In this document: positions 61,054 through 61,864 of the stretch, one piece after another
How the letters are laid out: each line of letters opens with the position of its first letter
How positions within the stretch are numbered: the first letter of the stretch is position 1
Sequence record: NC_100372.1
DNA: 64,000 bases
Reading direction: 5' to 3' (one strand)
Source: a phage
Notes under the pieces: generated by a model
The model's database searches: none
Told to the model about the DNA's origin: nothing
The model's input: the letters and a program-made list of their open reading frames with translations, nothing else
Program-made: the position numbers and the translations under genes

Positions 61054-61128
61054 TGGTGGCCCTGGGTGGAATTGAACCACCGTCTGGCGATTATGAGTCG
61101 CTTGCTTGAACCTTCCAGCTACAGGGCC
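61054..61128 (-). tRNA. tRNA-Met or Ile2 (anticodon CAU)
   Basis: Acceptor GGCCCTG/CAGGGCC, anticodon loop CUCAUAA, T-arm GGTGG-TTCAATT-CCACC, CCA encoded; G1-C72 pair argues against initiator. Confidence 0.6.
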
Positions 61129-61129
61129 A

Positions 61130-61205
61130 TGGTGCTGATGGCAGGACTTGAACCTGCAACCTATTGATTACAAATCAATTGCACTGCCAATTGTGCTACA
61201 TCAGC
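61130..61205 (-). tRNA. tRNA-Thr (anticodon UGU)
   Basis: Acceptor GCTGATG/CATCAGC, D-stem GCAC/GTGC, anticodon stem ATTGA/TCAAT with loop UUUGUAA, T-loop TTCAAGT, CCA encoded. Confidence 0.65.
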
Positions 61206-61209
61206 AAAA

Positions 61210-61308
61210 GGTGCTAGGTGATGGAATCGAACCACCTATGTATTCAACGACTACCTCGTCTATTTTCAGGATTAAAAATCCTCGCCCTTGCCAAAGGGCT
61301 TACCTAGC
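61210..61308 (-). tRNA. atypical tRNA-like element (about 99 nt; anticodon arm ambiguous, possibly UUU)
   Basis: Perfect 7-bp acceptor pairing GCTAGGT/ACCTAGC, D-arm GCCC-TTTGGCAA-GGGC, T-arm GGTGG-TTCGATT-CCATC, but about 30 nt between anticodon hairpin and T-arm; CCA not fully encoded. Confidence 0.4.
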
Positions 61309-61406
61309 GCAATATGTTGACCATGTGGCTAGTCGGCGATGACGACTGTAACATTTGATAATCCGGTTCTGCTTCCGGCTTTCGCTTAATTACAAGGTCA
61401 ACAATG

Positions 61407-61497
61407 TGGCGGAGAGTAATGGAATCGAACCATCATCGAGTCATCCTCAACGGGACGGTTTTCAAGACCGCTTGAGCACCATTGCTCCCTACCCTCC
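61407..61497 (-). tRNA. tRNA-Ser (anticodon UGA), long variable arm
   Basis: Acceptor GGAGGGT/ACTCTCC (one G-U), anticodon stem GCGGT/ACCGT with loop CUUGAAA, about 20-nt variable arm, T-arm GATGG-TTCGATT-CCATT, discriminator G, CCA encoded. Confidence 0.6.
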
Positions 61498-61601
61498 TTT
61501 ATAAATTACACTGATAATGACACTGATTTTCGAGCAGTTAGTGACTAGTATAAACGACGATAAATATCAATGTCATTATCTGTATGATTTATGCATTTAA
61601 A

Positions 61602-61688
61602 AATATAAATTTGGTGGGGAGTGGTGGAGTCGAACCACCCGAGTCGCAATGACAATAGATTTACAGTCTACACCGCTACCTCTACGGG
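61602..61688 (-). tRNA. tRNA-Tyr (anticodon GUA)
   Basis: Acceptor GGGGAGT/ACTCCCC, anticodon loop CUGUAAA, variable arm about 13 nt, T-arm GGTGG-TTCGACT-CCACC, discriminator A, CCA encoded. Confidence 0.65.
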
Positions 61689-61835: not shown

Positions 61836-61864
61836 ATATTACACTGTTAGGCAAAGTTTGTCAA
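61836..61864 (-). promoter_or_regulatory. sigma70-like promoter for the tRNA array (TTGACA-17-TAATAT)
   Basis: On minus strand: -35 TTGACA (plus 61859-61864), 17-nt spacer, -10 TAATAT (plus 61836-61841); about 60 nt upstream of tRNA-Arg. Confidence 0.5.

Follow-up and report, generated by a model that had tools for sequence, protein, structure and literature searches.

Is the tRNA-shaped element in the tRNA array of a Vequintavirus-like phage a tRNA, the remnant of one, or another kind of RNA? The question is raised by 99 nucleotides (nt) on the minus strand, at 61308-61210, of a 64,000-nt stretch of phage DNA (record NC_100372.1; the whole stretch is referred to as the window). The tRNA array of the window is identical to that of Escherichia phage EduardKellenberger (Bas59, Vequintavirus murica, rV5-like). 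An earlier note, made from the letters alone, had placed a tRNA-like element between tRNA-Thr and tRNA-Ser without giving a strand, and ARAGORN called a gene with exactly these ends, as 'tRNA-???' with a four-base anticodon (atcc). In GenBank the locus appears as tRNA-Lys, tRNA-OTHER, tRNA-???(atcc), tRNA-TERM, 'hypothetical protein' or nothing, with BASEL among the annotators that chose tRNA-Lys. Rfam holds no dedicated family for the element, and no description of it was found in the literature on Vequintavirinae and rV5 tRNAs, on Hena1 or on PARIS. On comparative evidence, the element is a member of a selectively maintained family of L-shaped tRNA-like RNAs, in which all five helices covary.

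In conventional tRNA numbering, the element opens with the acceptor strand GCUAGGU (positions 1-7, 61302..61308), which pairs perfectly with ACCUAGC at 61213-61219, giving the 7-base pair (bp) stem described previously. A8, A9 and the D arm, GCCC-UUUGGCAA-GGGC, follow (61284..61301). The earlier description of this arm as normal stands only in part, since A8/U14 is the reverse of the usual U8:A14 and the arm can be drawn either with a 4-bp stem and 8-nt loop or with a 6-bp stem and UGGC tetraloop, the latter being the form predicted by RNAalifold. G26 and the anticodon-like hairpin AGGA-UUUUUAA-UCCU, with a 4-bp stem, a 7-nt loop and the triplet UUU, occupy 61268..61283. The T arm (GGUGG-UUCGAUU-CCAUC, 61220..61236) is normal, as had been claimed, with a canonical T loop and a G50.U64 pair. 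Between these two hairpins lie 31 nt (about 30 by the previous estimate), now resolved into a 5′ linker, GAAAAUA (61261..61267), an extra-arm hairpin of 5 bp, GACGA-GGUAG-UCGUU (61246..61260), and a 3′ linker, GAAUACAUA (61237..61245). The acceptor 3′ strand, the discriminator A and CC were read from the sequence at 61210..61219. The 3′ CCA is indeed not fully encoded: A73-CC lacks the terminal A and runs into UUUU and then G1 of tRNA-Thr.

Folding of the single sequence produced the same five helices. The minimum free energy was −34.2 kcal/mol, compared with −22.5 ± 2.9 kcal/mol for shuffled sequences (z = −4.08), and none of 200 shuffles was as stable. Against the Rfam tRNA model (RF00005), the window copy passed the gathering score of 29 with 35.5 bits, but only with a 26-nt insertion opened and the first anticodon-stem pair left unformed; the class I neighbours (Thr, Arg, Pro and Met) scored 60-77 bits with the same model. 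At E ≤ 10, tRNA was the sole Rfam family overlapping the element. An intron or ribozyme within the insert was rejected, as no such match appeared at this threshold and the insert reads CUGAAAA, not the hammerhead CUGAUGA. None of the alternative folds examined yielded a standard tRNA with a normal variable arm, and the description as a tRNA with an insertion, or a tRNA-like RNA, proved correct for the anatomy. The fold proposed by ARAGORN, with stem AUUUU/AAAAU and loop UAAUCCUG, was discarded because its stem is absent from other genera. A plus-strand open reading frame (ORF) overlapping the element (61148-61342) was also rejected as coding: the inserts, at 24-34 nt, do not come in multiples of three, and the pattern of selection, with compensatory changes and G.U pairs, is that expected of RNA.

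Homologues were sought by BLAST, by pattern scans of viral contigs, metagenomes and genomes, and with a covariance model (R1) built from 21 sequences. Several of the searches required the motif AUACAUA; BLAST and the 5′-half patterns did not. Together they recovered 35 distinct homologues, spread over five genera of Vequintavirinae, metagenomes and a single, unrelated phage of the Schitoviridae. They occur in Vequintavirus and Avunavirus (Av-05, 24-2-1), Seunavirus (PVP-SE1, SSE121, 4MG, GAP31 and others), Mydovirus (BIS47, Mydo, DP, Ro1), Henunavirus (Hena1, pEp_SNUABM_01) and uncultured contigs, and in the N4-like Schitoviridae podovirus Salmonella phage vB_SenP_UTK0002 (L039 1201-1308). Scores with R1 were sharply bimodal: members reached 83-119 bits, and nothing else in the 315 kb of phage tRNA arrays, tRNAs included, exceeded 33.5 bits. 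Each locus searched held one copy. Pattern searches with the 5′ half only returned the known members and chance matches, nothing further. A scan of bacterial genomes gave no copy of the element, its one match, in Sporosarcina, being due to chance, and the family therefore appears to be confined to phages. The UTK0002 copy is 88% identical to an Erwinia Henunavirus copy and lies among different flanking tRNAs, which indicates at least one horizontal transfer between unrelated phage families, into Schitoviridae.

Selection on the structure was evident throughout the family. In the alignment of 21 sequences, 420 of 420 pair cells held standard pairs, compared with 85% in shuffles and 34-47% in a slid-partner control. 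Both sides had changed in 10 of the 20 pairs, giving 54 double-change cells where 13.9 were expected, and RNAalifold independently predicted the same cloverleaf. Compensatory changes affected four of the seven acceptor pairs, and three of the four D-stem pairs covaried. All four Watson-Crick combinations (A:U, U:A, C:G and G:C) are found across the family at the fourth, closing pair of the anticodon-like stem; in the T stem, pair 51:63 is U:A or C:G and pair 50:64 is G.U or G:C. The extra-arm hairpin is constant in presence and hypervariable in sequence and length, falling into several unrelated sequence types with compensatory changes within each (for example, A:U to G:C in Av-05). These types are common to different genera, which suggests recombination within the element. 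Covariation extends to the elbow tertiary pair 19:56, for which 15 sequences have G:C and six have U:A, and which is never broken. Copies with the T loop UUCGAUU have the D loop UUUGGCAA, and those with UUAGAUU have UUUGUCAA; the change between G19:C56 and U19:A56 probably represents one or a few events.

Across the 35 distinct sequences, drawn from six phage lineages, there were no pair-breaking substitutions. The close Vequintavirus and Avunavirus copies differ by about a dozen substitutions, namely double compensatory changes at 4:69 and in the extra-arm stem, three switches between Watson-Crick and G.U pairing (7:66, 50:64 and 1:72), and others in the loops, linkers and 3′ tail. G.U pairs arise only in the minus-strand reading, so that selection acts at the RNA level, with the minus strand as the functional RNA strand.

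These data bear directly on the pseudogene option left standing by the earlier note, under which the locus would be a tRNA gene in decay or what remains of one after an insertion. It would account for the incomplete CCA of the window copy, the absence of CCA in Avunavirus, the neglect of the locus by many annotators, and two natural deletions. In phage V18 (L011 ~850-943) and O157 typing phage 4 (L010 ~840-931), the 5′ part of tRNA-Tyr runs straight into the 3′ part of the element, with the loss of tRNA-Ser and of the element's own 5′ half, and the chimeric acceptor strands no longer pair fully. However, covariation in every helix and in the 19:56 pair, an intact set of pairs in all 35 sequences, and a horizontal move into a Schitoviridae array are not what decay would leave. 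The pseudogene reading was rejected because the helices and the tertiary pair covary, and we consider it extremely improbable.

If the element is maintained as an RNA, is it maintained as a tRNA? Several of its features are those of a canonical elongator tRNA: the 7/5 acceptor/T branch, the T loop UUCGAUU, G18 and G19 with the 19:56 elbow pair, a place in a tRNA array with junctions of the RNase P type, and a CCA that is encoded in most lineages. In contrast, the anticodon-like stem has exactly four Watson-Crick pairs in all 35 distinct homologues, bracketed by an invariant G...G, and the 5-bp stem of a tRNA is formed in none of them. The variable region spans 31-40 nt across the family and consists of a 7-9-nt linker, a hairpin and a 9-10-nt linker, which is neither the usual 4-5 nt nor a class II arm; where a class II arm is flanked by 1-3 unpaired nt, 7-9 invariant ones stand on each side here. 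The discriminator differs by lineage as well. U73-CCA is encoded in most lineages and in the other genera, Avunavirus has U or C and no CCA, and A73 is limited to the UUU-bearing Vequintavirus copies.

The loop of the anticodon-like hairpin also departs from tRNA rules in most of the family. Loops of 7 nt are UUUUUAA and UUUAUAA in Vequintavirus and Avunavirus, and CAUCAAA, UAUCAAA and AAUCAAG in the Henunavirus type. Seunavirus and Mydovirus have 8-nt loops (CCAUCCAG, CCAGCCAG, CCCUCCAG, CCUUCCAG and CCCUCAAG), and one contig has a 6-nt loop, GUGAUA. The position equivalent to 33 is U only in Vequintavirus and Avunavirus, and A or C elsewhere. With the loops aligned from their 3′ side, A37 is nearly invariant, and the triplet at 34-36 is UUU, UAU, UCC, GCC or UCA according to lineage. 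In Seunavirus and Mydovirus, positions 33 and 34 vary and C35 C36 A37 are fixed, except in one copy (L042, CCCUCAAG). ARAGORN left the element uncalled in the eight loci of other genera that were scanned, and an Rfam scan of the Seunavirus and Mydovirus copies gave no tRNA report at E < 0.05.

The window copy, with a loop of 7 nt, U33 and a purine at 37, invites a reading that several annotators have given to it. It may be a genuine, structurally unusual tRNA-Lys(UUU), charged by LysRS and decoding AAA and AAG, which would either top up lysine decoding or, because its different anticodon stem would escape the nuclease, replace a destroyed host tRNA-Lys. The canonical loop with UUU and A37, the presence of A73, the intact acceptor, T arm and elbow, and an Rfam tRNA score above the gathering score are all consistent with this, as are the label used by BASEL and others and a lysine codon content of 59 per 1000 in the window ORFs, where AAG is much commoner than in E. 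coli. A phage precedent exists in the T5 tRNA-Lys that acts against PARIS (PMC11464382). The anticodon stem of the window copy, however, with its 4 bp and invariant G.G, is shorter than that of any tRNA class. The 31-nt extra domain, with its invariant linkers, is irrelevant to lysine identity and, judging from binding geometry, would face a class II synthetase. Orthologues carry UAU, UCC, GCC or UCA, loops of 6 or 8 nt, and A33 or C33, alongside canonical isoacceptors, and the Avunavirus copies combine UAU with a U or C discriminator. The triplet UUU reported previously is present in the window loop, but decoding by it is uncertain, and we regard a working tRNA-Lys, the chief rival of the reading favoured below, as possible but doubtful.

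Codon usage was considered in this light. The window ORFs contain, per 1000 codons, 15.8 AGA, 12.0 AUA, 23.4 ACA and 33.9 AAA. In E. coli, AAA stands at ~34 per 1000, and AGA, AUA and ACA are several-fold lower than in the window ORFs. AAA is therefore no commoner in the window than in E. coli, unlike the codons served by canonical phage tRNAs, which counts against routine decoding by the element. Similarly, PVP-SE1 encodes a canonical tRNA-Gly(UCC) beside its UCC-like copy of the element, and that copy would thus be redundant as a decoder.

The most conserved parts of the element are neither the loop nor the extra arm but the core and the two linkers. The first five bases of the 5′ linker are G(A/U)AAA, and the 3′ linker contains AUACAUA, each in 35 of 35 distinct sequences; AUACAUA was present also in members found without that motif. 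Extra-arm types reassort with loop types, indicating that extra arm and loop do not co-evolve. This pattern would suit a tRNA-like regulator, charged or uncharged, with some other partner, comparable to the Bacillus cereus tRNA-Other or to the stable RNAs of T4 and T5, in which the loop would be incidental and the core and linkers would form the functional surface. The arrays of T4 and T5 likewise carry tRNA-like stable RNAs without an assigned function. No partner was found among the neighbouring proteins, however: those flanking the element had no Pfam matches, their PHROGs were of unknown function or tail-fibre-like, and no partner enzyme was adjacent. Sequences complementary to the linker AUACAUA were not enriched in the window either, and we judge a regulator of this kind improbable.

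Two more specific roles for these parts were tried and rejected. AUACAUA as an antisense seed found no support, as its complement occurred eight times in the window against 15.7 expected and the only exact match was the element itself. A kissing interaction between the anticodon-like loop and the extra-arm loop could be drawn in some members (UCCA:UGGA in Seunavirus and GCCA:UGGC in 4MG), but it involved a single compensatory event, many members lacked complementarity, and arm and loop types reassort.

A consensus scan made a terminator-like call at 61299-61284 (minus strand), consisting of the D-arm hairpin and the U run of the anticodon-like loop. Together with a position between other processed RNAs, this could point to a cis element of the polycistronic tRNA transcript, either a processing mark or a terminator or attenuator, with no function in trans. 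The U run, however, is limited to the Vequintavirus and Avunavirus loops, for which reason the call is probably coincidental. Conservation elsewhere of a whole cloverleaf, an elbow tertiary pair and an encoded CCA goes far beyond the needs of punctuation, and a role purely in cis seems very unlikely.

Comparison with other unusual RNAs narrowed the assignment further. Like tRNA-Sec (RF01852), the element has a long extra arm and a D arm that can be drawn with six pairs and a tetraloop, and its Henunavirus and Schitoviridae copies have a UCAAA loop. Unlike tRNA-Sec, it has a 7/5 branch rather than one of 13 bp (8/5 or 9/4), an anticodon stem of 4 rather than 6 bp and no G73, and the window copy combines UUU with A73. 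Scores against the tRNA-Sec model were at most 39 bits, below the gathering score of 47; this includes the UCA-type copies, for which it was the best Rfam match at 39 bits. SelC* tRNA-Cys has UCA with U73, and allo-tRNAs have diverse anticodons, UAU among them (Mukai et al., PMC5389517). The Henunavirus-type copies share UCA and U73, and the family as a whole shares the diversity of triplets, UAU included; but the 8/4 or 9/3 branch of those RNAs is not formed, as A8 cannot pair with C65 and the branch is 7/5 in all members.

T4 species 1 RNA (rnaC) and T5 RNA1, RNA2 and RNA3 are stable RNAs other than tRNAs that, like the element with its promoter-like site upstream, lie within phage tRNA arrays. 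In rnaC, a terminal stem closes off a T arm of canonical form. All of them differ from the element in length (119-144 nt) and architecture. With R1, no match was found in T4 rnaC or rnaD or in T5 RNA1, RNA2 or RNA3; only ordinary T4 and T5 tRNAs scored, at 28.8 bits or less. T5 tRNA-Lys(UUU) is also phage-encoded and of the lysine type, and the anticodon stem of the element, AGGA/UCCU, is distinct from the host stem GUUGA/UCAAU; but the T5 gene has a standard cloverleaf with a 5-bp anticodon stem. A Y RNA-like (YrlA, RF02553) assignment was rejected, as it gave only a spurious 25-bit match elsewhere in the array (gathering score 69). As far as sequence and predicted structure can tell, the element is not a standard tRNA, tRNA-Sec or allo-tRNA, nor a homologue of T4 rnaC or rnaD or of the T5 RNAs.

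What, then, might it do? We tentatively favour a processed tRNA mimic or specialised tRNA that would act through a tRNA-recognising protein and not as a routine decoder, and that is Lys-like in the window (UUU with A73). Two features speak against routine ribosomal decoding: the anticodon-type arm lacks one layer, and the place where the variable region meets the core is taken up by an extra domain that is rigidly conserved. The element would be co-transcribed with the phage tRNAs from the minus strand, and RNase P would free its 5′ end. It usually lies 2 nt from the CCA of the upstream tRNA, and such short junctions are typical of RNase P processing in tRNA arrays. Trimming at the 3′ side, followed by completion or repair of the CCA, would produce the mature 3′ end; the window copy would need both, given that its A73-CC is followed by UUUU. 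The RNA folds, as the covariation shows, into a tRNA-type L with the acceptor/T/D elbow intact, and would then offer its protein partner the body of a tRNA together with an anticodon-like loop and a discriminator that are specific to the lineage. The likeliest partner would be one of the host aminoacyl-tRNA synthetases, a defence nuclease directed at tRNA (PrrC, RloC or PARIS type), or both; against such a nuclease the element could serve as a decoy or a nuclease-insensitive surrogate. Aminoacylation of the element is possible.

The combinations of triplet and discriminator are consistent with such a partner. Three sets occur: UUU with A73; UCC or GCC with U73, G1:C72 and C2:G71; and UCA with U73. 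In sequence terms they match known synthetase identities, those of LysRS, GlyRS and a CysRS-like enzyme, respectively; UUU and A73 are identity elements of E. coli LysRS. From this match, and from the fixation of C35 C36 A37 in Seunavirus and Mydovirus, it seems that being recognised by a synthetase, or by some other protein that reads anticodons, counts for more than the geometry of ribosomal decoding. As for defence nucleases, PrrC, RloC and PARIS all target the tRNA-Lys of the host, and phage tRNAs with altered anticodon loops reportedly evade nucleases in another study. T5 tRNA-Lys neutralises PARIS, whose AriB recognises the anticodon stem-loop, and the T5 stem-loop differs from that of the host (PMC11464382).

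Several observations weigh against this mimic or specialised tRNA. In the window copy, the 7-nt loop is just what would be expected of a tRNA-Lys, and the array has no other gene annotated as tRNA-Lys; for these reasons a working, if unusual, tRNA-Lys is quite possible. The joint change to UUU and A73 is a single evolutionary event, and the sister genus Avunavirus, with UAU, a U or C discriminator and no CCA, fits neither lysine mimicry nor a clean identity set. Within genera the loop is conserved and not hypervariable, contrary to the expectation for a fast arms race, and we know of no anticodon nuclease whose target is matched by the UCC-like or UCA-like loops. The deletions in V18 and O157 typing phage 4 argue that the element is dispensable under some conditions or in some Vequintavirus lineages.

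A bolder proposal would join the three identity sets into one scheme. The family would be an aminoacylatable phage tRNA mimic with a constant, Sec-like body, whose identity is switched by lineage (Gly-like with UCC or GCC and U73, Cys- or opal-like with UCA and U73, Lys-like with UUU and A73), countering tRNA-directed immunity, such as PrrC, RloC and PARIS-type nucleases or tRNA-modifying toxins, as a decoy or nuclease-proof surrogate. We think this unlikely in its full form. A variant reading would make the element a natural recoding tRNA, given the 8-nt or opal-type loops in some genera.

To our knowledge, none of the stable RNAs without assigned function that have long been known from phage tRNA arrays, T4 rnaC and rnaD and several in T5, has been explained. 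The present family is tractable: it is short, has one copy per locus searched, occurs in E. coli phages that include BASEL Bas59 and relatives of rV5, and offers clear covariation, natural deletion variants and lineage-specific anticodon-like loops. A mimic aimed at synthetases or tRNA-cleaving defences, if true, would add a layer of RNA decoys to the phage-host conflict over tRNA. A working tRNA-Lys, if that is what it is, would mean that neither an anticodon stem of 4 bp nor a large insertion in the core is prohibitive for LysRS or the ribosome. In either case, the inconsistent annotation of the locus, which extends to a spurious ORF, would be fixed by a dedicated covariance model.

The array around the element comprises seven genes by ARAGORN, all on the minus strand of the window. 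In order of transcription they are tRNA-Arg(UCU), tRNA-Tyr(GUA), tRNA-Ser(UGA), the element, tRNA-Thr(UGU), a CAU tRNA and tRNA-Pro(UGG); for Vequintavirus, about five tRNAs have been described (PMC6563267). The element is flanked by tRNA-Ser(UGA) at 61407-61497 and tRNA-Thr(UGU) at 61130-61205. A consensus scan placed a sigma-70-like promoter, TTGACA-17-TAATAT, upstream of the array (61836..61864, minus strand). A second promoter-like site, ATGACA-18-TATACT at 61576-61547, lies in the 114-nt AT-rich gap between tRNA-Tyr and tRNA-Ser (61498-61611, minus strand). The CAU tRNA (61054-61128, minus strand) was called tRNA-Met by ARAGORN, and the BASEL record has tRNA-Ile reading ATA; a lysidine-dependent tRNA-Ile2 is plausible because of the ATA frequency in the window ORFs.

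Between tRNA-Ser and the element lies a structured spacer of 98 nt (61309..61406, minus strand; z = −2.2), a neighbour that was not shown to be part of the element. It forms a three-way junction, was seen only in Vequintavirus and had no match in the Rfam scan of the array. Its closing stem, UGUUGACC/GGUCAACA, changes to GAGGAUCA/UGAUCCUUC in one relative (L017) and to GUGGAUCAUG/CAUGAUUCGC in another (L067), in a fully compensatory manner, and its inner hairpins, CCGG-AAGCAGAA-CCGG and AGUCG-UCAUCGC-CGACU, are conserved.

Further orphan RNAs and odd tRNAs were found in relatives. Directly after the element, a second conserved orphan RNA of ~175 nt occurs in Seunavirus, Avunavirus and some Mydovirus-like contigs, outside the window (L003 1018-1195; L004 1016-1195; L009 1012-1190; L075 from 1112). 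It has the look of a tRNA body with a D-loop insertion of ~115 nt (AGUGCAU-UAGCUCAG...GUAGAGC-G-CCGUU-CGCGGAG-AACGG-...), compensatory changes in its anticodon-like stem and an atypical T loop. The L003 copy had no Rfam match; beyond the L009 copy, at 1198-1280, there was a weak, sub-threshold tRNA-Sec match. PVP-SE1 also carries, at L077 10079-10164 (minus strand), an 86-nt tRNA-Lys(UUU)-like gene with a D-loop insertion of ~10 nt, called 'tRNA-???(ggca)' by ARAGORN and tRNA-Lys in GenBank. Finally, a 152-kb metagenomic phage contig that carries the element contains an amber-suppressor-like gene, called 'tRNA-Pyl (cta)' by ARAGORN (L056 7862-7934).

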